Source of the DNA: an uncultured Acidobacteriota bacterium
GTDB taxonomy: Bacteria > Acidobacteriota > Thermoanaerobaculia > Multivoradales > UBA5704
Assembly: GCA_963700145.1 (NCBI GenBank)
Contig: OY969474.1
Coordinates: 1,632,001-1,696,000, forward strand
Direction of reading: 5' to 3'
Length of the DNA stretch: 64,000 nucleotides
The position numbers and the translations under genes were made by a program. Below the pieces are notes generated by a model, which saw only the letters and a list, made by a program, of their open reading frames with translations, did no database searches and was not told the origin of the DNA. Every line of letters begins with the position of its first letter. Positions within the stretch are counted from its first letter, which is position 1. Shown piece after piece: positions 7,665-37,556 of the stretch.

Positions 7665-7698
7665 GGTCTTACGGTTGTACCGTTGACTCGCCAACGGA

Positions 7699-7863
7699 GG
7701 GTCGCGCCGGGCGCTCTCCCCCGGGGAGCTCTCCGCAAGCGCCGGCAACGCCCTTCTCAGTCCACCACCGACCCCGCGCGCAGCGGAGCGCAGGCGCGCG
7801 CCCACCCCGAGCATTCCACAAAGCGCGCGCCGGTCCCCCGGGGGAGAGCGCCCGGCGCGACCC
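7699..7863 (-). repeat. Structured dispersed element, copy A (165 bp)
   Basis: Perfect 28-bp inverted repeat (7699-7726/7836-7863) enclosing ACCGGCGCGCGC...GGCGCGCGCCTGCGCTCCGCTGCGCG...GGGCGTTGCCGGCGCTTGCGGAGAGCT on the minus strand. Confidence 0.85.
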
Positions 7864-7894
7864 GGGCTCCGCGCGCTCGCCCCTCTCCTACCGC

Positions 7895-9214
7895 CTATGG
7901 ATAGATCTTGTGCAACATGCGCGGGTAAGGGATGGTCTCGCGCAGGTGATGGAGCCCGCCCATCCATGCCACGAAGCGCTCCAACCCCATCCCGAACCCA
8001 CTATGCGGAAACGCCCCATACCGCCGCACATCCAGATACCACTGAAACGCCTCGATCGGCAGATTGTGCTGGCGAATGCGCGCCAGCAGCAACTCGTGCT
8101 CGTGGATCCTCTGACTCCCCCCGATGATCTCCCCGTACCCCTCCGGCGCCAGCATGTCCAACCCCAGCACCACCTTCGCGTCCTCCGGGTCCGGCTGCAT
8201 GTAAAACGCCTTGAACGCCGCCGGGAACCGCGTCACCATCACCGGCCGGTCGTACCGCGCCGCCACCGCCGTCTCCTCGTCGGCGCCGAAATCGTCCCCC
8301 CACTGAATCGGGTTCCCCTCCGCCTGGAGCTGCGCGACCGCCTCCGTGTACGTGATCCGCGGAAACGGCGGCGCCACCCGCTCGAGCGGCGCCGGGTCCC
8401 GCTCCAGGACCTTCAGGTCCTCGCGGCAGCGGTCCAGCACGCGCGCCACCAGCTCGCAGACGAACTCCTCCGCCAGCGCGCACAGCCCCTCGAACTCCAG
8501 GAACGCCACCTCCGGCTCCACCATCCAGAACTCCATGAGGTGGCGCCGGGTCTTGCTCTTCTCGGCGCGGAACGTGGGCCCGAAGCAGTACACCTTGCCG
8601 AGCGCCGCCGCCGCCGGCTCCAGGTAGAGCTGCCCGGACTGCGAGAGGTACGCCTTCTCGCCGAAGTAGTCGGTCTCGAAGAGCGTCGAGGTCCCCTCGC
8701 AGGCCGCCGGCGTCAGGATCGGCGAGTCGATCAGCGTGAAGTCGCGGGTATGGAAGAAGTCGCGGATCGCCTGCGACACCTCGCTCCGGAGCTTGAGCGC
8801 GGCGCGCTGGCGGCTGGAGCGCAGCCAGAGGTGGCGGTGCTCCATGAGGAACGCCACCCCGTGCTCCTTGGGGCTGATCGGGAACTCCTCGGTGAGCTGC
8901 TCGACACGGAAGTCGGTGAGCTGGATCTCCACCCCGCCCGGCGCCCGGCGGTCCTCCTTGACGCGCCCGGAGAGCGCGACGGTCGATTCCTGCGTCGCCC
9001 GCTCGACCTCCGCCCACGCCGCCTCCGGCAGGTCCGCCCGGCTCGCCACCGCCTGCACCACCGCCCCGCCCAGCCGTACCTGGAGAAAGGCGATCTTCCC
9101 CGACGAGCGCTTCCCGTCGATCCACCCCCGCAGCGCCACCTCCTGCCCGGCGTGGGCGGGCAGCTCGCGGAAGGAGGGGGACGGGAGCGGCGGGGCGGGC
9201 GTGGTCGTCGCCAT
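7895..9214 (-). CDS. asnS: Asparagine--tRNA ligase
   Basis: YLSQSGQLY, FGPTFRAEKSKTRRHLMEFWM, GEIIGGSQR, PHSGFGMGLER. Confidence 0.97.
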   Translation of the reverse strand: MATTTPAPPLPSPSFRELPAHAGQEVALRGWIDGKRSSGKIAFLQVRLGGAVVQAVASRADLPEAAWAEVERATQESTVALSGRVKEDRRAPGGVEIQLTDFRVEQLTEEFPISPKEHGVAFLMEHRHLWLRSSRQRAALKLRSEVSQAIRDFFHTRDFTLIDSPILTPAACEGTSTLFETDYFGEKAYLSQSGQLYLEPAAAALGKVYCFGPTFRAEKSKTRRHLMEFWMVEPEVAFLEFEGLCALAEEFVCELVARVLDRCREDLKVLERDPAPLERVAPPFPRITYTEAVAQLQAEGNPIQWGDDFGADEETAVAARYDRPVMVTRFPAAFKAFYMQPDPEDAKVVLGLDMLAPEGYGEIIGGSQRIHEHELLLARIRQHNLPIEAFQWYLDVRRYGAFPHSGFGMGLERFVAWMGGLHHLRETIPYPRMLHKIYP

Positions 9215-9290
9215 GGGGCGCGGATTCTAGCAGCGGGTTTCACCCCGCCCCGGTGTACACTTCGGTAAGGAATCTCCAGGAGGGTAAGGA

Positions 9291-9548
9291 ATGCCGACGA
9301 CCACGCTCACCAGCAAGGGCCAAGTTACCTTGCCCAAGGAGATCCGCGACCGACTCGGACTGCGGCCCGGCCACCAGTTGAGCTTCGAGATCGAACCCGA
9401 CGGACGGCTCGTCGTGCGCCCCAAGAGCGTGGACCTCATGTCGCTCGGCGGGCTGCTGCGGCGCCGCCGGGCCAAGAAGAGCCTCCGCCAGATCGAGGAA
9501 GGGATCGGCCGCGGGGCGGCCGAGAGCTTCCGCGAGTCGGTCGAGTGA
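9291..9548 (+). CDS. AbrB/MazE-family antitoxin (VapB-like)
   Basis: TLTSKGQVTLPKEIRDRLGLRPG. Confidence 0.9.
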   Translation: MPTTTLTSKGQVTLPKEIRDRLGLRPGHQLSFEIEPDGRLVVRPKSVDLMSLGGLLRRRRAKKSLRQIEEGIGRGAAESFRESVE

Positions 9549-9943
9549 TCGCGCTCGACACCAACGTCCTCGTCCGTTTTCTCGTCGCCGACGATCCGGA
9601 GCAGTTCGAGGCGGCAAAGCGGAGCCTGGCCCGCCTCGGACCGGCGGAGGCGTCGGGCTTCGTTGCCGATGTCGTGCTCGCCGAGCTGGTTTGGGTGCTG
9701 CGCACCACCTACGAGCACTCGCGGGGCGAGATCCTACAGGCCCTGGAGGCCTTGGCCAGCGCCGACCATCTGACCTTCGAGGACGACGGCCGGCTGGCCC
9801 GCGCCCTGCGCGCCTTCGGCGAAGGGCGCGGCGACTTCGCTGACTACCTGATCCGCGAGCGCGCCGCGGCGACGGGCTGCTCGTCGGTCCTGACCTTCGA
9901 CAGGACGCTACAGAAAGAAAAGGGATTCTCGGCGCCTAGCTAG
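9545..9943 (+). CDS. vapC: VapC PIN-domain toxin
   Basis: LDTNVLVRFL, ELVWVL, DFADYLI, TFDR; GTGA overlap with the antitoxin. Confidence 0.9.
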   Translation: MIALDTNVLVRFLVADDPEQFEAAKRSLARLGPAEASGFVADVVLAELVWVLRTTYEHSRGEILQALEALASADHLTFEDDGRLARALRAFGEGRGDFADYLIRERAAATGCSSVLTFDRTLQKEKGFSAPS

Positions 9944-9959
9944 CGCCTTCGATGGCCCG

Positions 9960-10634
9960 CTAGTCGCTCTGCAGCCGCCGCAGCGCGTCCGCCGCGGCCT
10001 GCTGCTGCGCCACTTTCTTGCTCGACCCCTCGCCGCGGCCGGCGCGCTCGCCGGCGACCCAGCACTCGACGGCGAAGCGCTTGTCGTGGTCGGGGCCGGA
10101 TTCGCCGACCAGGCGGTAGTCGGGGAGGTCCCAGCCGCGCGCCTGCGCCAGCTCCTGGAGGGCGGTCTTGGAATCCGAGTGGAGGACCTCGGCGTCGGCG
10201 GCGAGCGCGCGGTCGAGCATCGGGCGGACGGCGGCGCGGGCGGGGTCGAGGCCGCCGTCGAGGTAGATCGCGCCGAAGAGGGCCTCCAGCGAGTCGGCGA
10301 GCAGCGAGTCCTTGCCGCGCCCGCCGCCCCGCTCCTCCCCCACCCCGAGCTTCAGCTCGTCGCTCACCCCGAGCGTAGCGGCCCAGGCGGCGAGGACCGG
10401 CTCGCTGACCAGGTGGTTCAGCCGCTTCGTGAGGCCGCCCTCGCGCTCGTCGGGATAGCGCTCGAAGAGCAGCTCGGCCGTGACGAGCTTGAGGACCGCG
10501 TCCCCCAGGAACTCCATGCGCTCCCAGTGCTCTTCGCTCCCCTGCTCGCTGGCGAGCGAGCGGTGGGTCAGCGCCCGCTCCAGCAGCTCGCGGCGGCGGA
10601 AGCGGTAGCCGAGGCTCTCCTCAACGCCGGCCAA
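9960..10634 (-). CDS. rnc: Ribonuclease III
   Basis: ALTHRS, ERMEFLGDAVL, EALFGAIYLDGG, C-terminal dsRBD. Confidence 0.95.
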   Translation of the reverse strand: MAGVEESLGYRFRRRELLERALTHRSLASEQGSEEHWERMEFLGDAVLKLVTAELLFERYPDEREGGLTKRLNHLVSEPVLAAWAATLGVSDELKLGVGEERGGGRGKDSLLADSLEALFGAIYLDGGLDPARAAVRPMLDRALAADAEVLHSDSKTALQELAQARGWDLPDYRLVGESGPDHDKRFAVECWVAGERAGRGEGSSKKVAQQQAAADALRRLQSD

Positions 10635-12435
10635 AGCGCCTTTCGAGGTCGGCGTCGGTCATCTGCAGGACGACGGGACGGCCGTGCGGGCAGGCGTACG
10701 GCTGCTCGGCGGCGAAGAGCTCGGCGACGAGGGCCTCCATCTCGGCCGGGGCGAGGGGGTGGTGCATCTTGACCGCCGCCTTGCAGGCGAGGCTCGCGGC
10801 GAGGGTCTCGACGAGGCGCCGGCGCAGGGGCGCGGCGCCGCCGCCGCCGTTGTCGCCGGCGTGCTCGGCACCCTCGTCGGCAGCAAGGGTGCGGAGGAGC
10901 GCCTCCCCCTCCTCGGCCGAGAGCGGGGCCGGGACGGCGGTCAGGGCCAGCGTGTCGCCCGAGAGAACGGCGAGGCCGAAGCCGCACTCCTCCAGCTCGG
11001 GCGCCAGCTCCTGGAGCCGCAGCCGCTCGGCCGGTGCCAGCTCCAGGAGGGCCGGGTGCAGGAGCGCCTGGCTGGCGGGGGACTCGGCGGCGAGGGCGCG
11101 GCGGAGGCGCTCGTAGAGGATGCGCTCGTGGGCGACGTGCTGGTCGATCACGTAAAGGCCGTCGGGGCCTTCGAGGAGGATGAGCGTCCCCTTGTACTGG
11201 CCGAGGAGGCGGAACGGGCGCGGCTCGCCGCCGCGGCCGGAGAGCGGGACCATCGGGCGGTCGAGGGGTGCGTAGGCGGCGGCTGCGAGACGCTGCGGGC
11301 TGCCTTCGGCAAGATCGCCGGCGAGGCGCCGCTCCCACGCTTCCGCCGTCGAGTACGGCCGGTCGCCCAACCCGCGCCAGGCGGGCGGCATCGACGGCGC
11401 CTCCCCGTGCGGCGCGCGCAGCGGCGCCGGCTCCTCGCCGCGCGCCCGCGCCAGGGCGGCGCGCAGGGTGAAGTGCAGGCGGTCGAGGAGACGAGGATCG
11501 CGGAAGCGCACCTCCGCCTTCTGCGGATGGACGTTGACGTCCACCTCCTCGGGCGGCAGCTCGAGGAAGAGGAAGAGCGCCGGGAACTCGTCGCTCCGCC
11601 ACTCCTCGCGCACGGCGCGGTAGAAGGCGGCGAGGACGGCGCGGTCGCGCAGGAGGCGCCGGTTGACGAAGACGAAGGCGCGGCGGGCGCCGGCGGTCTC
11701 GGGGGTGCCGACGAGGCCGGAGATCGTCTCGTGGAGCGCGCCGGTGGCGGCGAGGGCCGGTGAAGGGATCTCGACCAGGCGGCGCGCGAAGTCGTCGCCG
11801 AAGAGGGCGGCGATGCGCGGGCGGGGGTCGGCGGCGGGCAGAGCGTCGAGGAGCTCGCGGCCGTCGTGCGCGAGGCGCAGGCGGACGTCCGGGCGCGCGA
11901 GGGCGTAGCCCTGGACGACTTCCAGGCAGCGGCGCAGCTCGGTCGCCGGGCTCTTGAGGAACTTGCGCCGCGCCGGCACGTTCCAGAAGAGGGATGCGAC
12001 TTCGATGCGGGTGCCGCGCGGCGCGGGCGCGGGCTCGGCGGCGAGGACGCGGCCGCCGTCGATGCGCACGCGCTGGCCGTCACCCGGTTGCTCGGCGGTG
12101 AGGAGCTCGACGCGCGCCACGGCGGCGATGGCGCAGAGGGCCTCGCCGCGGAAGCCGAGGGTGGCCACGCGCTCGAGGTCGGCGAAGCCGGCGATTTTGC
12201 TGGTGGCGTGGCGGTCGAAGGCTAAGAGGGCGTCGTCGCGGCCCATGCCGGTGCCGTCGTCGGCGACGGCGATGCGGCGGCGGCCGCCGGCTTCTAATTC
12301 GATTCGGATGTCGGTGGCGCCGGCGTCGAGGGCGTTTTCGACTAGCTCCTTGACGACCGAGGCCGGGCGCTCCACGACCTCGCCGGCGGCGATCTGGGCT
12401 GCCACTCGGTCGGGGAGGATGTGGATGCGGGGCAT
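10621..12435 (-). CDS. mutL: DNA mismatch repair endonuclease MutL
   Basis: QIAAGEVVERPASVVKELVENALDAGA, GFRGEAL, DQHVAHERILYE, CPHGRP. Confidence 0.97.
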   Translation of the reverse strand: MPRIHILPDRVAAQIAAGEVVERPASVVKELVENALDAGATDIRIELEAGGRRRIAVADDGTGMGRDDALLAFDRHATSKIAGFADLERVATLGFRGEALCAIAAVARVELLTAEQPGDGQRVRIDGGRVLAAEPAPAPRGTRIEVASLFWNVPARRKFLKSPATELRRCLEVVQGYALARPDVRLRLAHDGRELLDALPAADPRPRIAALFGDDFARRLVEIPSPALAATGALHETISGLVGTPETAGARRAFVFVNRRLLRDRAVLAAFYRAVREEWRSDEFPALFLFLELPPEEVDVNVHPQKAEVRFRDPRLLDRLHFTLRAALARARGEEPAPLRAPHGEAPSMPPAWRGLGDRPYSTAEAWERRLAGDLAEGSPQRLAAAAYAPLDRPMVPLSGRGGEPRPFRLLGQYKGTLILLEGPDGLYVIDQHVAHERILYERLRRALAAESPASQALLHPALLELAPAERLRLQELAPELEECGFGLAVLSGDTLALTAVPAPLSAEEGEALLRTLAADEGAEHAGDNGGGGAAPLRRRLVETLAASLACKAAVKMHHPLAPAEMEALVAELFAAEQPYACPHGRPVVLQMTDADLERRFGRR

Positions 12436-12484
12436 GTTTGGCGATCTTACGGTAGGCCCCGCTGGACAAGCGGCCCCCCCGCCC

Positions 12485-12650
12485 AGCCCGGCGGCGGGCG
12501 CTCCCCGGAGGAACCGGCGCGCGCTTTGAAGACTGCCGAGGGGGGGCGCGCGCCTGCGCTTCGCTTTGCGCCTGGATCGATAGGGGACTGCAGTGGGGGT
12601 TGCCAGGCGCTCGCTCAGAGCTTCCTCCGGGGAGCGCCCGCCGCCGGGCT
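12485..12650 (+). repeat. Structured dispersed element, copy B (166 bp)
   Basis: Perfect 29-bp inverted repeat (12485-12513/12622-12650) enclosing ACCGGCGCGCGC...GGCGCGCGCCTGCGCTTCGCT...GGGGTTGCCAGGCGCTCGCTCAGAGCT. Confidence 0.85.
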
Positions 12651-12665
12651 TCCCCCCTGGACGAA

Positions 12666-13495
12666 CTACAAAGGCAGCAATGTGTAGGGGGGCTCGTGGA
12701 GGGTTGGCCTGCGCCTCGCTACTAGGAGAGTGTTGCCCCAGGCTCGGCGCCATAGGGGGACGGCGCGGAGTGTGGCGCGCAGGAGGCGGCGCGGGCCGCG
12801 GGGGTCGGGGCGATGCGGGAGGGTGCGGTGGTCGAGGATCTCGAGGTTGGCGGCGCGGAGGAAGCGAGCGAGGAAAAAGGACTGGGCGACGTGGACGGCG
12901 TCGGCGTCGGGGACGTAGCCTTCGGTCAGGACGCGGGGGCTCTCGACGAGGTCGAAGCGGTGGCGGCCGTCTAGGAGGGAGCGGAGCTGGCGGCCTAGGC
13001 GGCGGGCTGCGACCTCCAGGCGGCGGCGCGGAGGAAGGCTGGGGGGCATCTCGTAGGGGAGGTCCCAGGCCGAGCCGACGAGGAGGAGCAAGCCCCCGGG
13101 CCGCAGGACGCGGGCCGCTTCGAGCAGCGTCCTCCCCGGGTCGTGGAAGTGCTCTAAGGCGTAGGTTGAGAGGACGGCGTCGAAGCTGGCGTCGCGGAAG
13201 GGGAGGCGCTCGCCGTCGCCGCGGACGCGCGCTCCGGGGCGCCCCCACTCCGCCGCCAGGGCGAGGCCGGCGGTCGCGACATCCGAGCCGACGTAGCGGG
13301 TGCCGGGGGGCAGCCAGAGGGCGTTCTCGCAGGAGCCGCAGCCGAGGTCGAGGACCCGCTGGCCGGGCTCGAGGAAGCCGAGGAGGAGGCGCCGCTCGGG
13401 GGAGGCCTCGGGGTTGGCGGCGGCGGCCTGCGCGTAGTAGTCGCGGGAGGAGTCCCAGAAGGCGGCGAGCCGCCGGCGCTTTTCCGGGTCCGGCT

Positions 13496-13499
<4 letters not shown>
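12666..13499 (-). CDS. Class I SAM-dependent methyltransferase
   Basis: VLDLGCGS, LPFRDASFDAV, RVLRPGG; TTG start overlaps the ppdK stop. Confidence 0.85.
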
Positions 13500-16252
<2,753 letters not shown>

Positions 16253-16293
16253 GATCGCTCCTCCGAAGCCGGCATCCTACACTCCGCCGCCGC

Positions 16294-17187
16294 TCACGCC
16301 GGCGCCCGCTGCACGAGGAGGACGCTGCCCAGGATGAGGAGGCCACCGGCCACCACGACGGCGGTCACCGGCTCGCCGAGCAGCAGGACCGCGGCGGCGA
16401 AGGTGACGAAGGGCTCGAGGTAGAGGAAGGCGGCGACGCGCGAGACCTCCAGCCGTTCGAGGGCGCCGTACCAGAAGAGGTAGCCGAGCCCCGAGCAGCC
16501 GAGGCCGAGGAAGAGGACGGCGCCCCAGCCGGCGGGCGAGAGGCCGGGCAGCTCGCGCCAGCCGCGGGTGAAGAGGAAGAGCGGCGCGAGCATCAGCCAG
16601 CCCAGCGCCATCGCGCCGGCGGTGGCGCGGGTGGGGCCGAGGCGGCGCAGGGTGCGGTGGCCGAGGACCGAGTAGACGGCCCAGTTGACGGTGCTGAGGA
16701 GGATCAGGAGGTCGCCGCGGGTCGAAGGGAGGCGGAGGAGGTCGGCGCCGAGCGCGCCACGCGAGATGACGAGGAGGGCGCCGGCGAAGCCGCCGGCGAG
16801 GCCGGCGATCTTCCAGCCGCCCAGCCGCTCCTTGCCGAGGAGGACGGCGAGGAGCGCCGACCAGAGCGGGATCAAGCCGATCAGCCAGCCGGTCTGGACC
16901 GCCGTCGTCATGGTGAGCCCGACCGACTGGAGCAGCTGGTGGACGAAGATGCCGACGAAGCCCATGAGGAGCAGCGACGGCAGCGCGTCCCGCGGCGGCA
17001 GCGGCGAGACGCCGCGGGCGAGGAGAAGGACGAAGAGCAGCGCCGTGCCGAGCGCGAAGCGCATGAACACCAGCGTCACCGGCGACAGCTCCCGCAGCGC
17101 CGCCTTCGTCGCCACGAACGAAACCCCCCAGAGCACCACGGCGGCCAGCGCGAGGAGCCGGGGCCGACCCCCGGAGCCCTCGCTCAC
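16294..17187 (-). CDS. EamA/DMT family transporter
   Basis: LWGVSF, multiple TM segments, LYLEP..LLGEP. Confidence 0.9.
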   Translation of the reverse strand: MSEGSGGRPRLLALAAVVLWGVSFVATKAALRELSPVTLVFMRFALGTALLFVLLLARGVSPLPPRDALPSLLLMGFVGIFVHQLLQSVGLTMTTAVQTGWLIGLIPLWSALLAVLLGKERLGGWKIAGLAGGFAGALLVISRGALGADLLRLPSTRGDLLILLSTVNWAVYSVLGHRTLRRLGPTRATAGAMALGWLMLAPLFLFTRGWRELPGLSPAGWGAVLFLGLGCSGLGYLFWYGALERLEVSRVAAFLYLEPFVTFAAAVLLLGEPVTAVVVAGGLLILGSVLLVQRAPA

Positions 17188-17217
17188 GCCCGGGATGACC
17201 TCCGTTGCCTTACCAGA

Positions 17218-19300: not shown

Positions 19301-19314
<14 letters not shown>
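17218..19314 (-). CDS. glyS: Glycine--tRNA ligase beta subunit
   Basis: [48 protein letters not shown]. Confidence 0.95.
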
Positions 19315-20209
<895 letters not shown>

Positions 20210-20217
20210 GTCGGTCC

Positions 20218-20979: not shown

Positions 20980-21057
20980 GGCGGGATGGTACTCCCATCC
21001 CGCCGCGCTCGAAGGTCGAGTCGGAGGCGCGGCTCGGGCGCGGGCGGCTGCGGGGGT

Positions 21058-22385: not shown

Positions 22386-22442
22386 GACGACTGCTACCTC
22401 TCGGTGAGGGCACCGGAGGAGCGCGCCGGGACGATTAGTCCG

Positions 22443-22633
22443 CGGGCGCTCCAGGACCGAATCGGGCGCTCGCCCACCGAAACGGGCGTCCCCGAACCGA
22501 AACGGGCGCTCGCGGACCGAAACGGGCGCTCCCGCACCGAAACCGGCGCTCCCCCACCGAAACGGGCGCTCGCCAACCGAAACGGGCGCTCCCCCACCGA
22601 AATGAGCGCTCCGGGGCCTAAATGGGCGGCTCG
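22443..22633. repeat. Tandem array of about 9 imperfect 20-bp units, consensus ACCGAAACGGGCGCTC(N4)
   Basis: accga recurs exactly every 20 nt from 22456 to 22596; degenerate units at both ends. Confidence 0.9.
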
Positions 22634-22709
22634 TCCCCGTCCTCGTCGCTCGGTTTACCTCCCGGCAGCGCGATTTCCGCCGCCGGGCCGCCCGCTAGAC
22701 TCCCTCGCG

Positions 22710-22848: not shown

Positions 22849-22852
22849 CTAG

Positions 22853-24122
22853 CAGGCCGCTGAGAAACGGCCTTCAACGGCGGGTGCGAGGCTGACAGCG
22901 ATCTGGGAGCGGGCGATGTCGCGTGCGCGGGTGGAAGGGGAGGGCAACAGGCGCCTTGTGGGCGCGTTTGAGCGCCGCTGGTTTTGCTGGGCAGGACCTT
23001 TTTGGGCTATGCCGGCACGAGCAGGCGACTTAATCGGAGCAGGTTGTACGCTGCGGCGGCGAGGCGGGCGGCCAGCTGCGTCCTCGCCACGCCTCGGACC
23101 CTGGTCCGGTGCAGCCCTGCGCAGGTCTTGAGCCAGCCGAAGATCGTCTCGATTCGCCGCCGTACGACCTGACTGATCCGGTAGCCGGGACGGCGCGTTG
23201 TTCGCCGGTCGATTGCCGAGCGCCTGCGCCGGTGGGCATTCTGGGTGACGTGGGGGGTGACGCCGAGCTCTCGGCAGGCAGCCACGAAGCCCTTGGTGTC
23301 GTAGCTCTTATCGGCGCCCACCGTCTTGCGCCGCGAGCCTTCGAGCCGCGCGAGCAGACCCAGAGCTTCGCGACGCTCGGCGAACCCATCGGCCTGGGCC
23401 ACCACGAAGTCCACCAACAATCCGTTGCGGTTCTCCATCAGAGCGTGGCCGGAAAACGAGAGCTTCGCCTCGTGCCCATCCCCCTTGCGGGCCAGGCGCG
23501 CTTCCGGGTCGGTCGTCGAGGCGTGCGTCTCGTTGCTCCGCTTCGTCCCCGTGAAATCGCTCCAGCCGTTGGCGTCTCCGCCCGGTGGCCCGTCCTTGGG
23601 CCGGAAGCTCTTCATCGACGCCCAGGCCTCGATCAGCGTCCCATCCACCGAGAAGTGCTCGCTCGACAGCAGCCGCTGCACGCTCGCCTCAGCCACGATC
23701 GCCGCCAAAAACCGCTCGGCCACCTCGTGCCGGATCAGCCGCTCCCGGTTGCGTGAAAACGTGCTCGCGTCAAACGACGGCTCGTCGAGCTCCAGATCCA
23801 AAAACCAGCGAAACAGCAGGTTGTACTCGAGCTGCTCGCAAAACTGCCGGTCGCTCCGCACCGAAAACAGCGCGATCAGCAGCTGCGCCTTGAGCAGCCG
23901 CTCCGGCGGCACCGACGGCCGCCCCGTCTCGGCGTACATCACCGCAAACACCTCACTCAACTGCCCGAGAGCCCGGTCGGCCAGCCCCTTGATCCGCCGG
24001 ATCGGATGCGCCGCCGGAATCCGCTCCTCCAACGACCCCACCATCAACAACGTCCTCTGCTCGCGCGCTTTCCCTCGCATGGCCTGCAAGGGTAGCGCGA
24101 ACCGGGGTTTTTCAGCAGCCTG
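22853..24122 (-). mobile_element. IS5-family insertion sequence, copy 1 (1270 bp)
   Basis: TIRs CAGGCTGCTGAAAAA / CAGGCCGCTGAGAAA (13/15); CTAG on both sides (22849-22852, 24123-24126). Confidence 0.95.
23007..24080 (-). CDS. IS5-family DDE transposase
   Basis: GRPSVPPERLLKA, YNLLFRWF, HFSVDGTLIEAWAS, GADKSYD, RRRIETIFGWLK, AAYNLLR. Confidence 0.95.
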   Translation of the reverse strand: MRGKAREQRTLLMVGSLEERIPAAHPIRRIKGLADRALGQLSEVFAVMYAETGRPSVPPERLLKAQLLIALFSVRSDRQFCEQLEYNLLFRWFLDLELDEPSFDASTFSRNRERLIRHEVAERFLAAIVAEASVQRLLSSEHFSVDGTLIEAWASMKSFRPKDGPPGGDANGWSDFTGTKRSNETHASTTDPEARLARKGDGHEAKLSFSGHALMENRNGLLVDFVVAQADGFAERREALGLLARLEGSRRKTVGADKSYDTKGFVAACRELGVTPHVTQNAHRRRRSAIDRRTTRRPGYRISQVVRRRIETIFGWLKTCAGLHRTRVRGVARTQLAARLAAAAYNLLRLSRLLVPA

Positions 24123-25070
24123 CTAGCGGAAGTACCCGTTGACGTCGATCACGAGGTGGACCGTTCCAGGGTCTGCGGCGAGGGAGGCCCGGACGCTCAG
24201 CATGCCGCTGCCGATCAGCGCGGCGATGCCGTTGTTTGCCCGCGTCTGGCCGGCGCTGAAGTTGATCGTCGAGGTGAGGGGCTCGACCGTCCCCGCCGCG
24301 AAGACTCGCAGGAACCCAGGCGCGGTCGGGCCGACGACGGTGATGTTGAACGAGACGGCGCGGGCGTCGGCGGGGATTCCGCACTGTCCGCCGAGCAGGA
24401 AGTCGCGGAGCTCGTTCGCGCCGAGAGCGGGCCCGCCGTGGGGACCGTCGGCCAACCGCGTGTCGACAACCCGGCACGGCAGCAGCGTGTAGAAGTCGCT
24501 CGGGGAAAGCGCCGCCGACGGGTCGACGCGAAAATAGGCTGCGCCGCCGCCGAACGGGCTGAGCTTGATCCGCATCGTGATCTCATGTGGCCCCGGCGAG
24601 AGAGAGAACAGACCCTGACTGACGCGCGGATCGGCGATGCACGGCTCGGGGTCGTCGCCACAGTCGGCGCCGAGGTCCCGCGGTGTCGAGGTGGCGCCGA
24701 GCTGGGCGCCGAAGTCGAAGATCTCGAACTGGTCGCCCAGCAAGAACGCGTCGGTCACCGTCAAGGTCGCCCCTCCGGCCGGAGCCGTGAACGTCCACGG
24801 CGGATCGTCGGCGAAAACGGAGTTCCCGCCCGAGCTCGGCACGCAGCCGCCCCCTTGGCAGCCCATCGCAAAGCTTCCCGGGCCGGCGAAACTGAACTCG
24901 TTCCACGGCCCGCCAATCGGTACGGGTCCCGGCGGCGGGCCCGTGCCCGGGGAAGCAGCCGGCCCTCCGACCTCGCGGCTCGCGACACCGTTGCCCTCTT
25001 GGGCAGAAATCTCCTGAGCGAGAAAAACCGCGACGCAGGCGGCCGAGAAGATCGCTCTCCTGCTGACCAT
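24123..25070 (-). CDS. Secreted protein with C-terminal PCRVVDTR...DVNGYF beta domain
   Basis: Signal peptide; Cys-containing N domain (TVTDAF..GDQFEIFD); C domain FYTLLPCRVVDTR..STINF..RANN..IDVNGYF. Confidence 0.8.
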   Translation of the reverse strand: MVSRRAIFSAACVAVFLAQEISAQEGNGVASREVGGPAASPGTGPPPGPVPIGGPWNEFSFAGPGSFAMGCQGGGCVPSSGGNSVFADDPPWTFTAPAGGATLTVTDAFLLGDQFEIFDFGAQLGATSTPRDLGADCGDDPEPCIADPRVSQGLFSLSPGPHEITMRIKLSPFGGGAAYFRVDPSAALSPSDFYTLLPCRVVDTRLADGPHGGPALGANELRDFLLGGQCGIPADARAVSFNITVVGPTAPGFLRVFAAGTVEPLTSTINFSAGQTRANNGIAALIGSGMLSVRASLAADPGTVHLVIDVNGYFR

Positions 25071-25122
25071 TGGATGAGATTCTACTAAATAATCGCTTAG
25101 ATTTCAGGGAACGGACAAAGCC

Positions 25123-30131: not shown

Positions 30132-30147
30132 GGGTGGCCGGCGCCGC

Positions 30148-31146
<999 letters not shown>

Positions 31147-31321
31147 CGTGGGTCGGACAATCTCAGGGGCGCTGGGGCCGGAAGGCATTTAGTGTAGCAG
31201 CATCCCTGCAAGGCCCCGGCCAGAGGGGCCAATCCGGGCAATTCGGATGCTCTCTGGTATGCTGCCTCAAACCTTTAGGCATCACTGAACCGGGGAGTCC
31301 AAAGGAGGTACGGGCGACGCG

Positions 31322-31879
31322 ATGCCGGCCTGGGACCATCTCCACAAGTGGCTCATGACCGCCGTCGGCGGGACCATCGCGACGCTCGCCGGCGGCTATC
31401 TGCTTCACGTCTTCCTTCAGCCCCAGACCACGCCGCCCGTCGCGTCGGTTCGAGCTGACGAAACCGCTCGTGCAGACCCGGTTCCACCGGCTCGGCAAAC
31501 CGGCGGCTACCTCGTCGAGCGCCCCGCTCTTTCCGAGACTCCCATCCAGACACCTGCCCCGGAGCCGGCGGCTGAGACCCTCGAACCGGTCGCGCCGCGC
31601 CCCGCCGGAGGCCCGAAGCTCCTCTCACCGGCGGCGCCGGTCCTGTTCTCGGAGATCGACACGCTCGTGAGCGTCAGCTTCCGCGAGACTCTGGGCTCCC
31701 GGTACGCGGAGTTCGTCGTCGATGCGCCCGGCAGCGAGAGCTTCCGTTTCCCGGCGCGGAGCGCGGGCGCCGCGCAGGAGTTCGAGACCGGAGGACGGCG
31801 CTTCGAGATCCGCGTCGTCGCAATCGACTGGCAGGGAATGACATCGCAGGTCATGTTACGGCCGGCTGCCGGCTCGTGA
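31322..31879 (+). CDS. Hypothetical membrane-anchored protein
   Basis: AGGAGG RBS, N-terminal TM, Pro-rich linker, C-terminal beta domain. Confidence 0.7.
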   Translation: MPAWDHLHKWLMTAVGGTIATLAGGYLLHVFLQPQTTPPVASVRADETARADPVPPARQTGGYLVERPALSETPIQTPAPEPAAETLEPVAPRPAGGPKLLSPAAPVLFSEIDTLVSVSFRETLGSRYAEFVVDAPGSESFRFPARSAGAAQEFETGGRRFEIRVVAIDWQGMTSQVMLRPAAGS

Positions 31880-31887
31880 GGAACTCA

Positions 31888-32899
31888 ATGAAGCGAGTCT
31901 CACCGCCATCGCTTTCCGCGGTCTTCCTCTTGCTCTTCTCAGCCGCGTCCTGGGCGCAGGCGCCCCAAGACCTCGAAGGCGGCATCCGCGACCTCGCCGC
32001 CCAGCTAGCACAAGGCATGGCGGGTCAGGTGAAGAAGGTGGCCGTAGTCGAGTTCCCCGACCTGAACGGGTATCAATCGACTCTCGGTCAGTTCATCGCC
32101 GAGGAGCTGATCACCCAGCTCTCCGCCGGCAAGGCGCCTGGTCAGTTCGATGTGGTCGAGCGCCGCCTTCTCGCGCGGGTGCTGAAGGAGCAGGAGCTCA
32201 CGGACAGCAGCCTCTTCGATGCTGAGTCGATCGCCAAGATCGGCAAGATCCCTCGGCATCGAGGCGATAGTCACCGGCTCGATCGCGGACCTAGGCTCGG
32301 ACGTCAAGATCAACGGTCGCGCGATTTCAGTCGAGAGCGCCAAAGTCTTCGCCGCCGCGTCGGCCAAGATCCCGAAGACCGACACCGTACAGCAGCTCAT
32401 GCGACAGAATGCCGGTCAGGCTGCGCTCTTGTCAGCCTCCGCGCCTGCCTCGCGGGTGGCACAGCGGAGCGACGTGTACTTCCAGAACGACTTTCTGCGG
32501 GTTGATATCTCGTCCGCGGCACTTTCCAAGGCCAAGGACCGCCTGACGCTTTCCCTGATTCTTCAGAACACCTCGAGCCAGGAGATTCTCGTCGCAATGG
32601 ACAAGTACGGAGGTTGTCTAGCCCGAGTGGTCGATAACTCCGGCATAGTCGCACCTAGCGACAACGGCGGCGCCGTCATGGTCACAGGAGTACGCTGCCT
32701 CGACTGGAGAGAGAGACCCGAGAACTACGCCCGACTCAGCCCAGGAGCTAAGACGCCTATCGTGCTCGCCTTCGAGACAGAGCGCGAAGAGCCGTTTGGA
32801 GGCGGCCCCTTCTCTTTCAGCGCCGAATTCCTGCGGCTCGATGGAGGCAGCTACTCGCGTTTCACCATCGGACTCTCGGACATCGCGGTTAGAGACTGA
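31888..32899 (+). pseudogene. FlgO/CsgG-like exported protein with a +1 frameshift near 32251
   Basis: Signal peptide, VAVVEF..LG.FIAEELIT..FDVVER..VLKEQ; ...KIGKI continues as LGIEAIVTGSI..VKINGR in ORF 32219..32899. Confidence 0.75.
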
Positions 32900-32930
32900 G
32901 GGCAGCGCGAGGGCCCCGCACCCGCACGGC

Positions 32931-33380
32931 TCAGCTCTCTCTTCCCGGAGGTCGGGTCGCTCCAAGCAGGGATTCGACCTCTTCGATGAGCATAGGAAGG
33001 TTCGGCTGGTTGAAGCTCATTCCGGGCGCCGGGATGCGGTTGTGCTTCATCTCGGGAGGGACGTGCTTGTGGTGGGGGAACGTGCTCTGCAACGCCGGCT
33101 CGTTCGGATGGGGCTGCGGGTCGTACCAGTAGAGCTTCTCGCCGCCTTGCCAAGCCTCGTAAGCGTAGCCGGCGATGACTACCGGAAGGCGATCGAAGAC
33201 CAGCCTTTCGCGGACGACGAGCCGAATGCTGCGATCGAAATACAGCTCACCTTCCACGCGCGCCAGCGAGCTGCCACGCCTGACCAATGTGATCGTGGAA
33301 CGCCGAGTGCTGGCGAATCGCTCGGTCAGGGTGTAGAGGAAGAGCTCGTAGTCCTCGACCGTGCGGAGCGCGTCGGTCAC
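32931..33380 (-). CDS. DUF6516 (TumE-like) toxin
   Basis: Y.YE.W..KLYWYDPQPHP..STFPHHKH; GTG 3' of and overlapping the partner stop. Confidence 0.75.
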   Translation of the reverse strand: MTDALRTVEDYELFLYTLTERFASTRRSTITLVRRGSSLARVEGELYFDRSIRLVVRERLVFDRLPVVIAGYAYEAWQGGEKLYWYDPQPHPNEPALQSTFPHHKHVPPEMKHNRIPAPGMSFNQPNLPMLIEEVESLLGATRPPGRES

Positions 33381-33646
33381 GCGACCACGCGAACCAGACC
33401 TGCGAGGCTCGAGCGGCCCCCTTGGAGGGCCTGGATCTCGTTGCGGTACTCGGCTTGCCTTTCCAGCCACGTGCGGTAGACGCTCGCCCACTCGGCGAAG
33501 TCGAGCACCCAGGCTTCGTCCTCCGGCTCCTCACCGGCCGCATAGGCGGCATAGAAAGTCTCGGAGCGAAGGCCGTACCTGCGCTCGAGCTCCAGCAGCT
33601 CCTCTTCCAGAGCGTGGATGTCGGCCAGGATCTCTTGCGGAGTCAT
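33377..33646 (-). CDS. Putative antitoxin (TumA-like)
   Basis: LERRYGLRSETFY..DFAEWA; paired with the DUF6516 gene; TATACT -10 and GAGG RBS. Confidence 0.7.
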   Translation of the reverse strand: MTPQEILADIHALEEELLELERRYGLRSETFYAAYAAGEEPEDEAWVLDFAEWASVYRTWLERQAEYRNEIQALQGGRSSLAGLVRVVA

Positions 33647-33707
33647 GGGCTTTCCTCGGGCATCGAGTATAGACGGGGGTTAAGACGCCCGGCACGTGGG
33701 CCGGGCG

Positions 33708-34565
33708 CTACTTCTTCGAGTAGTCGTAGAACCCCCTGCCGCTCTTCCGCCCCAGGCGGCCGGCAAGGACCATCTGCTTGAGCAGCGGCGGCGGGGCGAA
33801 GCGCTTCTCGCGGTACTCCTCGAACATGATGTTGGCGATGTAGTAGGTGGTGTCGAGGCCGACGAAGTCGAGGAGAGCGAAGGGCCCCATCGGGTAGCCG
33901 CAGCCGAGCTGCATCGCCTTGTCGATGTCCTCGAGCGACCCCACCCCCTCCTCGTAGGCGCGGATGGCGTCGAGGATGTAGGGGACGAGGAGGCGGTTGA
34001 CGATGAAGCCGGAGTTGTCGCGCGCCGTCACCGGCTCCTTGCCGAGCGTCTTGACGAAGGCGAAGGCCGACTGGAAGGTGTCGTCGGAGGTGGCGAGGGT
34101 GCGCACCACCTCGACCAGCTTCATCACCGGCACCGGGTTGAAGAAGTGGAGCCCGACGAAGCGGTCCGGGCGCTTGGTGGACATGGCGAGCTGGGTGATG
34201 GTCAGCGACGACGTGTTGCTGGCGAAGATCGCCTCGGGCTTGACCGCGGTGTCGAGGGCGGCGAAGGTCTGCCGCTTCTCCTCGGGGTTCTCGACGATCG
34301 CCTCGACGACCAGGTCGCAGTCCTCGAAGGCGGCGAGGTCGACCGTGCCGCTCAGCCGCGCCGCCGCCTCGTCGCGCTGGGCGGCCTCCAGCTTCCCCTT
34401 CTCCACCGCCTTGTCGAGCGAGCCGCGGATGCGTCCCATCCCCTTCTCCAGCAGCTCCTCGTTGACCTCCCGCACCACGGTCGGGTAGCCCGCCCGGGCG
34501 CAGACCTCGGCGATCCCGGAGCCCATCAGCCCGCTGCCCAGGACGCCCACCTTCTGGATCTTCAT
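33708..34565 (-). CDS. hbd: 3-hydroxybutyryl-CoA dehydrogenase
   Basis: GSGLMGSGIA, ASNTSSL, GLHFFNP, GFIVNRLL, GYPMGP. Confidence 0.93.
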   Translation of the reverse strand: MKIQKVGVLGSGLMGSGIAEVCARAGYPTVVREVNEELLEKGMGRIRGSLDKAVEKGKLEAAQRDEAAARLSGTVDLAAFEDCDLVVEAIVENPEEKRQTFAALDTAVKPEAIFASNTSSLTITQLAMSTKRPDRFVGLHFFNPVPVMKLVEVVRTLATSDDTFQSAFAFVKTLGKEPVTARDNSGFIVNRLLVPYILDAIRAYEEGVGSLEDIDKAMQLGCGYPMGPFALLDFVGLDTTYYIANIMFEEYREKRFAPPPLLKQMVLAGRLGRKSGRGFYDYSKK

Positions 34566-34581
34566 CGAATCCTCCTTGGGA

Positions 34582-35004
34582 TCATGTGAGTTCCTCCTCG
34601 ATCACCCGCTCCCCTTCGCTCTCCCCGCGCGCCAGCCGCAGCCGCCGCGCCCCGGCGACCGGCCAGGGAAGCCGCTCCGGCCACTCCACCACCTTGACCC
34701 CGGGGCCGGCCAGCAGCTCCTCCAGCCCCAGCCCCGCCGCCTCGGCCGGCTCCAGGCGGTAGAGATCGACGTGCACGAGGCGCGCCCCGCCCGGGCCGGC
34801 GTGTTCGCGGATCAGCGTGAAGGTCGGCGAGGCGATCTCCCGCGGCGCGATCCCCAGCCCGCGCGCCACACCTTGCGCCAGCACCGTCTTGCCGCTCCCC
34901 AGGTCGCCGGCCAGGAGGAGCGTACCGTCCGGGGCCAGCTCGGCGGCGAGCGCCTCCCCCACCCTCCGGGTCTCCTCCTCCGACACGGTGCGCCAGCGTC
35001 TCAC
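34582..35004 (-). CDS. tsaE: tRNA t6A biosynthesis ATPase TsaE
   Basis: GDLGSGKT, SPTFTL, HVDLYRL, VEW. Confidence 0.95.
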   Translation of the reverse strand: MRRWRTVSEEETRRVGEALAAELAPDGTLLLAGDLGSGKTVLAQGVARGLGIAPREIASPTFTLIREHAGPGGARLVHVDLYRLEPAEAAGLGLEELLAGPGVKVVEWPERLPWPVAGARRLRLARGESEGERVIEEELT

Positions 35005-36563
35005 GACGGGCCGGAGGCGACGCGGGCCAGATGGCGGAAGGCGGACGGCAGCTCTTCGGCCAGGTCGCCGGCCGAAAGCCCGCGCGTCCCCTGCCGCTCG
35101 GCGGCGAGGTCCCCGGCCAGGCCGTGGACGTAGGCGCCGGCCAGGGCCGCGGCGAAGGGATCGAGTCCCTGGGCCAACAGGGCGGCGAGGAGGCCGGTGA
35201 GCACGTCGCCGGTGCCGCCGGTGGCCATCCCGGGGTTGCCGGTCGGGTTGATCCAGACCTCGCCGTCGGGGCTCGCCACCAGCGTCCGCCGCCCCTTGAG
35301 GAGGACGACCGCGCCGGTCTCGCGCGCCAGGCGCTCGGCCGCCCCTACACGGTCGGCCTGCACCTCGGCGGCGGTGAGCCCGAGGAGGCGGCCGGCCTCG
35401 CCCGGGTGCGGGGTGAGGATGGCCGGGCTCGCGCGCTCCGCGAGCTCCCCGGCGCGCCCGGCGAAAGCGTTCAGACCGTCGGCGTCGACCACCACCGGCA
35501 CCGGCGATTCGCGCACGAGACGGCGCACCGCCTCGGCCGTCTCGGGGTCGGTGCCGAGCCCGGGCCCCAGAGCGAGCGCCCCCTTCCCCGCCATCGCCGC
35601 ATGCACCCGCTCGACCGCGGCGCCGGCGAGGGCGCCCGCGGCGTTCGCCGGCAGCGGTACCGTCATCGACTCGGCCGAGCCCGCGGCGACACTCGGGAGG
35701 ATCGGCTCCGGCACCGCCACCGTGACCAGCCCCGCCCCGCCCCGCACGGCGCCGCGCGCGGCCAGAACCGCTGCGCCGGCCTTCCCCCGCGAGCCGGCGA
35801 CCAACAAGGCATGGCCGCAGTCCCCCTTGTGGGCGCCGGCGGGACGCGGCGGCAGGAGGGCGGCGGCCTCCTCCTCGGTCAGCAGGTGGAGCGCGCCGGG
35901 CGCCGCCTCGACCAGCCAGGGCGGGATGCCGAGGTCGGTCACCACCAGCTCCCCCACCGAGTCCGCCGCCGGCGGCAGGACGTGCGCCACTTTGGGGGCG
36001 GCGAAGGTCACCGTCAGGTCGGCGCGCAGGTGCGGCTCCCAGGCCTCGGCGCGGCTCCCCGCGAGGCCGCTCGGGAGGTCCACGGCCACGCGCGGCCGCG
36101 GCAGCGCGTTGAGGGCGGCGACGAGGGCCGCGAAGTGCCCTTCGAGCGGCCGCGCCAGGCCAGTGCCGAAGAGGGCGTCGACGACGAGGTCGGCCGCCGC
36201 GGCGGCGGCGAGGTGCGGGGCGAGGTCGCCGTCGGGCGGCAGCTCGACGAGCGGCAGCTCGAGGGCGCGGACGATGCCGAGCTGCACCGCCGCGTCGCCG
36301 CCGAGCGCCCGCCCACCGGCCGCTAGCACGGTCTCGACCTGATAGCCGCGCACCGCCAGGTGGCGCGCCACGGCCAGGCCGTCGCCGCCGTTGTTGCCCG
36401 GGCCGCAGAAGACGACCGCGGAGGCGGCGCGCGGGTAGACCTCGCCGATCGCCTCGACGACGCCGATCGCGGCGTTCTCCATGAGCACCAGCCCCGGCAC
36501 TCCCAGCTCGTCGATGGCCGCGCGGTCGAGCGCGCGCATCGCCTCGGCGGTCAGGACCCGCAC
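35001..36563 (-). CDS. nnr: Bifunctional NAD(P)H-hydrate epimerase/dehydratase
   Basis: LMENA, GPGNNGGDG, DALFGTG, HKG, DADGLN, TPHPGE, GGTGDVL. Confidence 0.95.
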   Translation of the reverse strand: MRVLTAEAMRALDRAAIDELGVPGLVLMENAAIGVVEAIGEVYPRAASAVVFCGPGNNGGDGLAVARHLAVRGYQVETVLAAGGRALGGDAAVQLGIVRALELPLVELPPDGDLAPHLAAAAAADLVVDALFGTGLARPLEGHFAALVAALNALPRPRVAVDLPSGLAGSRAEAWEPHLRADLTVTFAAPKVAHVLPPAADSVGELVVTDLGIPPWLVEAAPGALHLLTEEEAAALLPPRPAGAHKGDCGHALLVAGSRGKAGAAVLAARGAVRGGAGLVTVAVPEPILPSVAAGSAESMTVPLPANAAGALAGAAVERVHAAMAGKGALALGPGLGTDPETAEAVRRLVRESPVPVVVDADGLNAFAGRAGELAERASPAILTPHPGEAGRLLGLTAAEVQADRVGAAERLARETGAVVLLKGRRTLVASPDGEVWINPTGNPGMATGGTGDVLTGLLAALLAQGLDPFAAALAGAYVHGLAGDLAAERQGTRGLSAGDLAEELPSAFRHLARVASGPS

Positions 36564-36585
36564 GGTCAGGACCCGCGGAGATGTC

Positions 36586-36622
36586 CCCCTCTCCCATGTG
36601 GGAGAGGGGCCAGGGGTGAGGG
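36586..36622. repeat. REP-like hairpin CCCCTCTCCC-atgt-GGGAGAGGGG with GGGGTGAGGG tail
   Basis: 10-bp perfect stem; matches a common dispersed repeat shape (CCCTCACCCC..CCCTCTCCC..GGGAGAGGG). Confidence 0.7.
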
Positions 36623-36674
36623 AGATGGGATCAACGCAGGAAAGGTGGAAGCCTCTTGGATGCTCCCGTCAGGT

Positions 36675-37364
36675 TCAGCGGCCGCAGCCAACGAGAGGGT
36701 CCCTCTTAACCAGTCGATCCCAGGCCTCAAGGAGGCCCCGGGTCCGGGGGCAGCCCAGATCGCCGGCGGCCATCTCGGCGGCGAGGCGGCGGAGGTCGGC
36801 GGGGGTGTCCACGTCGGCGGCATGAGGCAGGAGCTCGACGGCGAGGCCGAGCTCGCGGCAGCGGTCGAGGGTGGCGGCGAGGACGCCGGCGGTGGACCAG
36901 GGGATCTCGCTGAAGAGGCGCGGGTCGAGGGCGGCGGCGCGCAGGGCGATGAGGTAGTAGCCGCCGTCTTCGGCGGGGCCGAGGACGACTTCGGCGCCGG
37001 CTTCTAGGCGCTCGAAGGCGCGGTGGACGAGGGGCAGGGGGAGGGTGGGGTGGTCGCTGCCGAGGGCGGCGACGAGGAGGGCCTCGCGGGCGGCGGCGGA
37101 GAGGGCGCGGTGGAGGCGGGCGCCTAGGTCATGGCCTTCCTGGCGGAGGCCGGGGACGGGGCCGGCGGGGAGGGGGTCACCGGGGTCGAGGTCCCAGGCT
37201 AGGCGGAGGTCGAAGTCGCCGGCGCTGAGGCGTTCCAGGAGATCGGCGAGGAAGGCGGCGTGGAGGTCGGCGGCTTCCTCGGGGCTAAGATCGCCGATTA
37301 GGCGGGTTTTGACTCGGCCGGGGCGGGCTGGCTTGGTGAAGAGAAGAAGGCGGCGGCCGGGCAC
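36675..37364 (-). CDS. DUF2064 / TIGR04282-family glycosyltransferase-like protein
   Basis: K.A.PGRVKTRL, QEG.DLG.R, GSDHP, LGPAEDGGYYL, DVDTPADL. Confidence 0.88.
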   Translation of the reverse strand: MPGRRLLLFTKPARPGRVKTRLIGDLSPEEAADLHAAFLADLLERLSAGDFDLRLAWDLDPGDPLPAGPVPGLRQEGHDLGARLHRALSAAAREALLVAALGSDHPTLPLPLVHRAFERLEAGAEVVLGPAEDGGYYLIALRAAALDPRLFSEIPWSTAGVLAATLDRCRELGLAVELLPHAADVDTPADLRRLAAEMAAGDLGCPRTRGLLEAWDRLVKRDPLVGCGR

Positions 37365-37393
37365 ACGCGGATTGTATATGGGGAGCCGTGGAG

Positions 37394-37556
37394 GGTCGGT
37401 TGGGGGCCTCCCGGCGGGAACCGGCGCGCGCAACAGATGACTGCCGGATCTGAGGCGCGCGCCTGCGCTTCGCTGCGCGCGGAATCGGGCGGTGGGCCGC
37501 AAAGGGTGTTGCCAGCGCTTGCTCAGAGCTTCCCGCCGGGAGGCCCCCAACCGACC
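37394..37556 (+). repeat. Structured dispersed element, copy C (163 bp)
   Basis: Perfect 27-bp inverted repeat (37394-37420/37530-37556) enclosing ACCGGCGCGCGC...GGCGCGCGCCTGCGCTTCGCTGCGCG...GGGTGTTGCCAGCGCTTGCTCAGAGCT. Confidence 0.85.

Follow-up and report, generated by a model that had tools for sequence, protein, structure and literature searches.

What does a bacterial repeat do that keeps long, perfectly paired ends while the sequence of these ends differs from copy to copy? The question is raised by a 64,000-nt stretch of an uncultured Acidobacteriota bacterium (assembly GCA_963700145.1, contig OY969474.1, positions 1,632,001 to 1,696,000; "the window"), in which an earlier note had picked out three intergenic elements of ~165 bp with a conserved core and copy-specific stems. 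The source genome (G000) is a single contig (C1) of 5.46 Mb with 71.5% GC. A profile built from the three cores converged on 40 full copies in this genome, 25 on the plus and 15 on the minus strand. The forward strand is that of the element as oriented in the earlier note. After a copy arrives, C-to-G, C-to-T and G-to-T changes pile up on the forward strand over ~1 kb on both sides. This oriented effect, here called the halo, is undescribed for any bacterial repeat in the sources searched.

The usual explanations for local GC skew in bacteria are replication direction or transcription. Around the element, the forward strand carries more G than C to either side of the copies, with mean skews of +0.19 and +0.18 over 750 nt. 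The skew is positive in 37 of the 40 copies on each side, and the non-positive copies include ones beside an oppositely oriented neighbour. It stays at about +0.2 to 500 nt on both sides and reaches zero near 1.2 kb. Random controls had a standard deviation of 0.011, the largest of 2000 draws being 0.038, and gene-context controls averaged about 0. The halos of the three copies in the window are:

7000..8599, minus strand: halo of copy 1, plus-strand skew of −0.20 to −0.35 in 400-nt windows
11000..13799, plus strand: halo of copy 2, skew of +0.10 to +0.27, with silent C to G changes in mutL and in the methyltransferase gene
36640..38310, plus strand: halo of copy 3, skews of +0.28 and +0.18, 750 nt scored on each side

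The same shift is visible at silent sites. In forward-strand genes, the fraction of C at four-fold degenerate sites is 0.22–0.25 within 500 nt of a copy vs 0.52–0.58 at 1.5–3 kb, and in reverse-strand genes the corresponding values for G are 0.16 vs 0.39–0.42. Two-fold degenerate sites shift solely as C-to-T on the forward strand. The gene calls behind these figures agree with all seven frames that were checked (79–100% of codons). Taken together, the four-fold and two-fold shifts show that gene orientation is irrelevant to the halo. Replication direction was rejected as a cause, because copy orientations alternate along the chromosome and the 100-kb skew stays within about 0.03. Passive fork stalling would be expected to produce a one-sided or sign-flipping halo and was likewise set aside. 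More generally, the same-sign, two-sided shape would argue against replication direction, transcription, double-strand break resection and rolling-circle displacement.

No halo was found at 51 single SRM hairpins (an Ssn-type repeat, see below), at 76 GTAG hairpins, or at two other repeats (57 and 37 copies). A sibling family of ~200 nt, with 10 copies and three motifs in common with the core, has a halo of its own (+0.155 and +0.05). Its members are mostly fused to SRM hairpins (C1 positions 481223, 2445078, 4223258, 4700959, 5088964, 5152265 and four more). A small hairpin family with AACGG at the foot has a weak skew of matching polarity (2033426, 3204743, 3388205, 3890332 and three more).

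Sites that are filled in one genome and empty in another place the halo in time. Three relatives (genomes are given G numbers) lack the element at copy 2. Compared with one of them, G001, the skew is +0.22 vs +0.04, and the flanks differ by 100 C-to-G and 6 G-to-C changes over 1542 nt. Within 700 nt, in frames checked with Pfam, 77 of the 133 four-fold C are now G, and 1 of the 124 four-fold G is now C; at first and second codon positions C-to-G amounts to 2 of 278. Beyond 1300 nt, the values are 28/199 for C-to-G and 16/338 for G-to-C. Against G002, which is also empty, 85 of 125 silent C have changed to G at copy 2 (this genome is more distant, with 22 of 40 changed even far off) and 68 of 98 at copy 3. 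These comparisons reject the possibility that copies 2 and 3 inserted into DNA that was skewed beforehand. Over 20 filled-versus-empty comparisons the sums are 627 vs 233, with recurring sites, so that the comparisons are not independent. For copies present in relatives and absent from the source genome the difference is smaller, 382 vs 266 (17 rows, duplicates included). Near position 3086800 of C1, the source genome is still skewed without a copy, and relatives hold one there; at 2720733 and 4693471, neither side is skewed and no difference was found. In our reading, the halo builds up after insertion and outlasts the loss of the copy.

The mutation spectrum was determined at four-fold sites polarised with outgroups, comparing rates per 1000 at 0–300 nt with those at >1300 nt. 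Three changes are raised near the element, i.e. C-to-G (116 vs 40), C-to-T (32 vs 13) and G-to-T (28 vs 3). The others are G-to-A (19 vs 16), G-to-C (26 vs 30) and C-to-A (7 vs 5). The underlying counts near the element are 47 for C-to-G, 13 for C-to-T, 35 for G-to-T, 23 for G-to-A, 32 for G-to-C and 3 for C-to-A. Unpolarised, G/T differences are seen at 98 of 2155 sites close to copies and at 45 of 8651 distant ones, and A/C differences number 8 near and 59 far. Near copies, divergence at first and second positions is also about double that farther away (0.048 and 0.032 vs 0.026 and 0.016). Because G-to-T is raised even though it lowers G, selection for G is no explanation. No neighbour-base preference was found among the halo changes, and a context-specific deaminase was rejected on this ground. 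Three raised changes with flat strand mirrors would fit lesions on one strand that are copied with C or A opposite; re-synthesis of the forward strand with G and T wrongly incorporated would give the same pattern.

What kind of element produces this trace? Re-measurement returned the lengths of 165, 166 and 163 bp and the coordinates of all three copies exactly as the earlier note had them, together with its perfect stems of 28, 29 and 27 bp with different sequences, and the three cores align. The consensus fold is a three-way junction made of the outer stem P1, the 9-bp helix P2 and an irregular P3, which closes the junction and contains fixed G-A and TC/TC mismatches. P2 and P3 are each capped by a G-rich loop with a GACT-type motif, present in the P2 loop of 38 of 40 copies and in the P3 loop of 34 of 39. 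The parts found in the window are:

7699..7863, minus strand: copy 1, 28-bp outer stem (arms 7836–7863 and 7699–7726) enclosing the two-helix core; flanked by genes for an EamA transporter and a class II (D/K/N) tRNA synthetase
7693..7698, minus strand: 3′ foot motif (A/T)CCG, which lies 0–5 nt past the stem in most copies, judged by eye
12485..12513, plus strand: left P1 arm of copy 2, 29 nt; this copy lies between mutL and a methyltransferase gene
12516..12554, plus strand: P2 of copy 2, 9 bp (12516–12524 with 12546–12554), with the G-rich GACT-motif loop
12556..12621, plus strand: P3 of copy 2 (12556–12572 with 12606–12621), with the second loop of the same motif type
12622..12650, plus strand: right P1 arm of copy 2
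37394..37556, plus strand: copy 3, 27-bp outer stem (arms 37394–37420 and 37530–37556)

Folding is stronger than in 200 of 200 shuffles for copy 2 (z −6.8) and copy 3 (z −8.7). Additional copies without complementary outer stems would have spoken against the proposed family; instead, the longest perfect run of the arms is at least 25 bp in 29 of the 40 copies and at least 20 bp in 39. The lone copy with a short run carries an insertion of ~72 nt within one arm, past which pairing resumes. A two-hairpin module of ~72 nt with a GTAG-tagged palindrome occurs at L036:129–202 (L numbers denote extracted loci) and at 13 other sites of the source genome; it inserts after GAA in SRM hairpins, at other sites and in one element copy. 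Of 79 perfect inverted repeats in the genome (at least 18 bp, within 500 nt), 41 overlap copies of the element.

Covariation was evaluated for 81 further sequences in an alignment fitted to the model, with close kin among its members. Both sides have changed in 33 of 44 pairs, more than in 500 of 500 shuffles and in all slid controls, and in 25 of 25 pairs of the outer stem. The fold is thus kept while the arms vary, and the inner GGCGCGCGC helix, earlier considered possible, is real and covaries. The changes on both sides of the outer pairs also uphold the contrast with miniature inverted-repeat transposable elements (MITEs), whose conserved terminal inverted repeats are not found here.

In the source genome, P1 is paired in 916 of 936 alignment cells. 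The 20 mismatches comprise nine C-T, five A-C, four G-T and two C-C, so that 11 are C-T or C-C when read on the forward strand. C-T and C-C mismatches are poorly handled by mismatch repair. The lack of a G-U excess in the stems points to DNA, although more G-U pairs are seen in distant families in the model-fitted alignment. A structured non-coding RNA (ncRNA), one of the candidates proposed earlier, is unsupported by the pair types (4 G-T vs 5 A-C) and by the gene-independent halo. The earlier alternative between selection on structure and copying of one arm from the other is answered in part: arm-to-arm correction would fit the near absence of G-U pairs.

The three-way junction is conserved across an order. 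The covariance model R1 matched 68 of 151 genomes sampled from the order, with a patchy distribution: 19 of 22 genomes in family f5, 17 of 21 in f8, 8 of 10 in f10 and 8 of 10 in f11, and 0 of 21 in f7 as well as 0 of 21 in other genera of the source genome's own family. In a phylum-wide sample of 151 genomes, only three matched, all within the order and none outside. BLAST among 61 genomes detected all four congeners and one genome of another family. A strict sequence pattern found 86 stretches across the genome collection; among the 80 listed, 70 are titled Thermoanaerobaculia and 73 pass the model, which the matches from other phyla fail. Viral contigs gave 0 matches to one strict pattern, and among the listed reads and contigs of four sequencing runs no joint across a copy was found.

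Copies come and go and can persist for long; the arms remain at their site, and the cores are exchanged. Copy 1 is present in G004 and G002 as well, and one element site adjoining polA is common to several families. Between congeners, copies have been gained and lost. At orthologous sites (41 pairs, some rows duplicated, four anchor failures excluded), the arms are mostly kept and paired and the cores differ by 3–30%, at times with a switch of subtype. At C1:3020118 the arms are 100% and the core is 75% identical, and at the site of copy 3, G004 has similar arms and a different core variant. The comparison of empty and filled sites thus uncovered gain and loss, but no clean pre-insertion site. 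In 25 copy–relative alignments checked for target-site duplications, the empty sites were too diverged to compare. Two short forms retain both outer ends and look like deletions; one of them, at copy 2 in G004, was considered as a pre-insertion site and is more likely a deletion remnant, because the outer ends are kept and the flanks are already G-shifted. In G001, the copy 2 site (L065) has ~640 bp with two small open reading frames (ORFs) in the element's place, one of them with what we take to be a PIN-like start. In other families, tandem clusters of 2–4 copies with a spacing of ~327 or ~441 nt occur (L126:1406–2241, L227, L237, L127).

A gene family co-occurring with the element was sought in five screens of the 151 genomes of the order, none of which gave a partner. 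The source genome has no Y1 transposase, and the Y1_Tnp screen spoke against the RAYT/HUH enzyme that had been suggested, because the element is present in 13 of the 20 listed genomes that lack Y1_Tnp; eight Y1 loci from element-positive genomes carry other repeats, with a best model score of 25 bits on either strand. Similarly, 14 of 20 listed genomes without reverse transcriptase (RVT_1) carry the element. Y-family polymerases occur in 151 of 151 genomes and are not indicated as a required partner, IS110 occurs in 78 without a clear tie to the element, and an Ssn-like protein occurs in 17 and is not a required partner, its association with the element having a Fisher p of 0.008 among kin that are not independent. 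Clustering of 426 neighbouring ORFs brought out solely shared sites and no recurring enzyme, and where two copies lie close together, the space between them is occupied by host genes.

The insertion sequence (IS) family IS110 has a different relation to the element. In G113, all seven copies examined (L443–L449) are interrupted at the same arm/core junction by a 1521-bp IS110, and a stem of 21–23 bp spans the inserted IS. A related IS110 lies beside a core-only match in G091 (L450), and another is at the arm/core junction in L458 (G058). The mutual similarity of the G113 copies runs 100–200 nt past the element, as in a larger repeated unit. The idea that the element provides a bridge RNA was rejected: it is the target of IS110 and not its non-coding end. 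This makes the arm/core junction a programmed IS110 target, as repetitive extragenic palindromes (REPs) are reported to be for ISPpu9 (10.1101/2025.01.17.633520). The IS110 of genus g18, which is multi-copy, sits at one point of REP-like palindromes and not in the element (0 hits in seven loci, L451–L457).

The element, which the earlier note did not recognise as a known family, matches none of the known families tested. Rfam gave no match at the gathering threshold in the 64-kb window, and at E≤1 for nine loci only one sub-threshold hit to an internal ribosome entry site (17 bits vs a cut-off of 40). REPs and REPINs differ in having conserved arms and variable spacers, a pattern that is reversed here, the element being a branched 165-nt fold with variable arms and a conserved core. 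The element is not a 20–40 bp palindrome tagged with GTAG or CGTC; a GTAG/GGAG foot is seen by eye on the reverse strand of only some copies. There is no flanking or co-occurring Y1 transposase, and the genome's own GTAG hairpins have no halo. These hairpins number 81, even though the search of the genome for a Y1 transposase gave no hit. What the element shares with REPs (PMC3733652) is that both are dispersed intergenic hairpin DNA, gained and lost, and targeted by IS110.

There are also points of likeness to the Ssn/SRM system. By eye, P3 and the genome's SRM-like hairpin share a CT-TC-GC/GC-TC-AG internal loop, SRMs are found no more than 200 nt from 18 of 40 copies vs a baseline of 5%, and the element is present in 13 of the 17 genomes with an Ssn-like hit. 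One such hairpin stands beside copy 1, downstream on the element's forward strand:

7630..7665, minus strand: SRM-like hairpin, a separate Ssn-type repeat

In contrast, 0 of 40 copies match the published SRM pattern (PMC11893778), of which longer variants could be listed in the supplements of that description. This pattern is narrow, with 52 sites in a genome that has >200 SRM-like hairpins. Of the 68 element-positive genomes, 55 have no hit to the Ssn query used. The ssn genes are flanked by their own SRMs, single SRMs show no halo, and the element's halo is the same with and without a neighbouring SRM (0.20 and 0.17). Among 24 ssn loci, full copies of the element occur just in five loci of genus g21, a few hundred nt past the gene and its own SRM. 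Ssn is reported to cut only SRM-sense single strands (PMC11893778). The source genome contains a gene for a GIY-YIG (Ssn-like) protein of 92 aa with inverted SRM-like hairpins on both sides (L087:1340–1820, C1 ~2172650–2173125), and two or three tandem ssn-like genes, each with hairpins and followed by a copy of the element, were seen in G046 (L358, L361, L366) and G092 (L356, L362).

Further systems share single features. Integron attC sites also vary in sequence, keep a fold with fixed mismatches and are an IS110-family target. The element differs in being solitary or in small tandem clusters by housekeeping genes, in its three-way junction and in the lack of cassette arrays, and we know of no flanking mutagenesis at attC. 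Diversity-generating retroelements (DGRs) combine a structured DNA site with locally mutated sequence nearby; the element changes C and G and not A, on both flanks and in whichever gene is hit, and neither dependence on reverse transcriptase nor adenine-specific change in one variable repeat was found. Strand-coordinated mutation clusters of eukaryotes resemble the halo in having C-to-T and C-to-G on one strand over ~1 kb, and differ in that the element's polarity is fixed by the repeat, heritable, without sequence context and inclusive of G-to-T. The literature searched (few subscription papers, no supplements) mentions neither this family nor any oriented mutational halo at a bacterial repeat.

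Which process could connect a folded repeat with a one-strand spectrum? Action at the DNA level and in a strand-specific manner is, in our judgement, very probable. The full account that we favour, to which we give slightly less than an even chance, is that the element, a non-coding chromosomal site with low mobility, acts as a folded single strand of DNA and not as RNA. Its core would be recognised as folded single-stranded DNA by a protein or by host machinery. The forward strand would repeatedly be left unpaired on both sides, most simply by a nick in the opposite strand and a gap widened both ways. Damaged or lost bases on the exposed strand may be copied with C or A opposite, which would yield C-to-G, C-to-T and G-to-T and leave G-to-C, G-to-A and C-to-A unchanged; the strong GC preference of the host would then retain G. 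Abasic sites on single strands are reported to give C-to-T plus C-to-G in a yeast study (PMC11230362). The exposed strand could fold back, repair within the fold would keep the arms complementary, and cores would pass between copies by conversion. SRM hairpins beside copies are 17 to 2 on the forward strand, which we count in favour of this account. A more specific version, in which a dedicated protein opens one strand for ~1 kb each way and the host retains the copies as portable mutator sites that drive C-to-G, C-to-T and G-to-T, is possible and rather unlikely.

Several results weigh against the folded-strand account. No single-stranded DNA or nick was observed in the data used, and the C-T and C-C stem mismatches are purine pairs when read on the reverse strand, which may itself be the strand that folds. 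Among 322 neighbouring ORFs scanned (the last set at a strict 1e-18), no transposase, nuclease or recombinase was found besides the Ssn control. C-to-G outnumbers C-to-T by 77 to 8 at four-fold sites, and we know of no bacterial polymerase that prefers C opposite abasic sites. Some relatives scored as empty are equally skewed, in short alignments (G002 at 2318262 and 3642689, G001 at 2730451), and G003, which is filled at copy 3, still has 78 of 117 C-to-G differences and lags far behind. The generality of the halo is limited: across 82 loci of other families, some of them orthologous, f3, f4, f10 and g63 show it clearly, f11 shows it on one side only, f5 (21 loci) and f9 (7) show it weakly, and 28 loci of g18 lack it. 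The g18 copies are very alike and the Y-family polymerase matches of this genus are weak, so that copy age and a missing polymerase are confounded there. Lastly, 170 of the 200 strong skew peaks, scored with less accurate gene calls, lie away from copies.

Two rival explanations are each unlikely. If fragments of the element and its flanks were exchanged between cells or copies with fixed strand polarity, and C:C escaped repair while G:G did not, a conversion drive would result with no raised mutation. The dominance of near-purely silent C-to-G (77/133 four-fold vs 2/278 first and second positions), a fall-off that fits fragments of ~1 kb, the swapping of cores between copies, the ComEC-type gene of the genome and the discordant quartet sites (48/90 within 400 nt vs 65/183 beyond 1 kb) all agree with this. 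Discordance can, however, come from parallel mutation, and the drive predicts neither the tenfold rise of G-to-T with flat C-to-A nor the C-to-T shift at two-fold sites. With a marginally smaller chance, the fold is a priming or helicase-loading site, where a primosome or helicase is loaded and a low-fidelity polymerase re-synthesises the forward strand, mis-inserting G and T. The same spectrum fits, the copy site beside polA is common to families, and g18 combines weak Y-family hits (E 1e-10 to 1e-15 vs mostly ~1e-50) with a lack of halo; these very similar copies may, however, simply be young, and f5 and f9 have strong Y-family hits and yet weak halos. Priming is one-directional and the halo symmetric, and the likeness to a primosome-site consensus is not confirmed in print.

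Two others are improbable. Selection at silent sites for C-rich, unstructured reverse-strand flanks that the element needs, with normal mutation, would explain why changes are mostly silent and approach a plateau. Across 40 loci, hundreds of individual silent sites would each need to be under selection, and this reading is at odds with the raised G-to-T and with the twofold faster divergence of first and second positions. Marginally less credit is due to a structured RNA or an R-loop anchor, in which the forward strand is displaced by a transcript of the element through folding or hybridisation in cis: strong covariation, a size and multi-helix fold like those of ncRNAs and tandem G-A pairs on the reverse strand suit it, whereas the lack of a G-U excess, the lack of an Rfam match and a halo that is independent of gene orientation and extends ~1 kb to both sides do not.

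Other repeats share the window with the element. Two identical IS copies of 1278 bp with a DDE_Tnp_1/DUF772 transposase lie in opposite orientation at 22849–24126 and 59634–60911. A tandem array of 20-nt units is found at 22405–22664, ~200 nt from the first IS copy, and many similar phased arrays occur elsewhere in the genome. A palindromic repeat at 36572–36706, with many copies in G002 and no halo, presumably resembles DUF559-linked repeats.

For this group of bacteria, the element sets the local skew by its orientation. Over half of all silent C has changed in the essential genes next to it, against a difference of only ~14% of silent C between the same genomes at greater distance. The halos record former copy sites and distort codon and divergence analyses in the group, and the repeat marks places where strand-biased mutation can be tested directly. 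If the element is a mutator site, it would represent targeted mutagenesis that is free of reverse transcriptase and of deaminase context, or else an undescribed landmark of strand-specific repair, priming or DNA uptake, over ~80 kb of the chromosome. A dedicated enzyme, if one exists, would be a new tool for site-directed mutagenesis.

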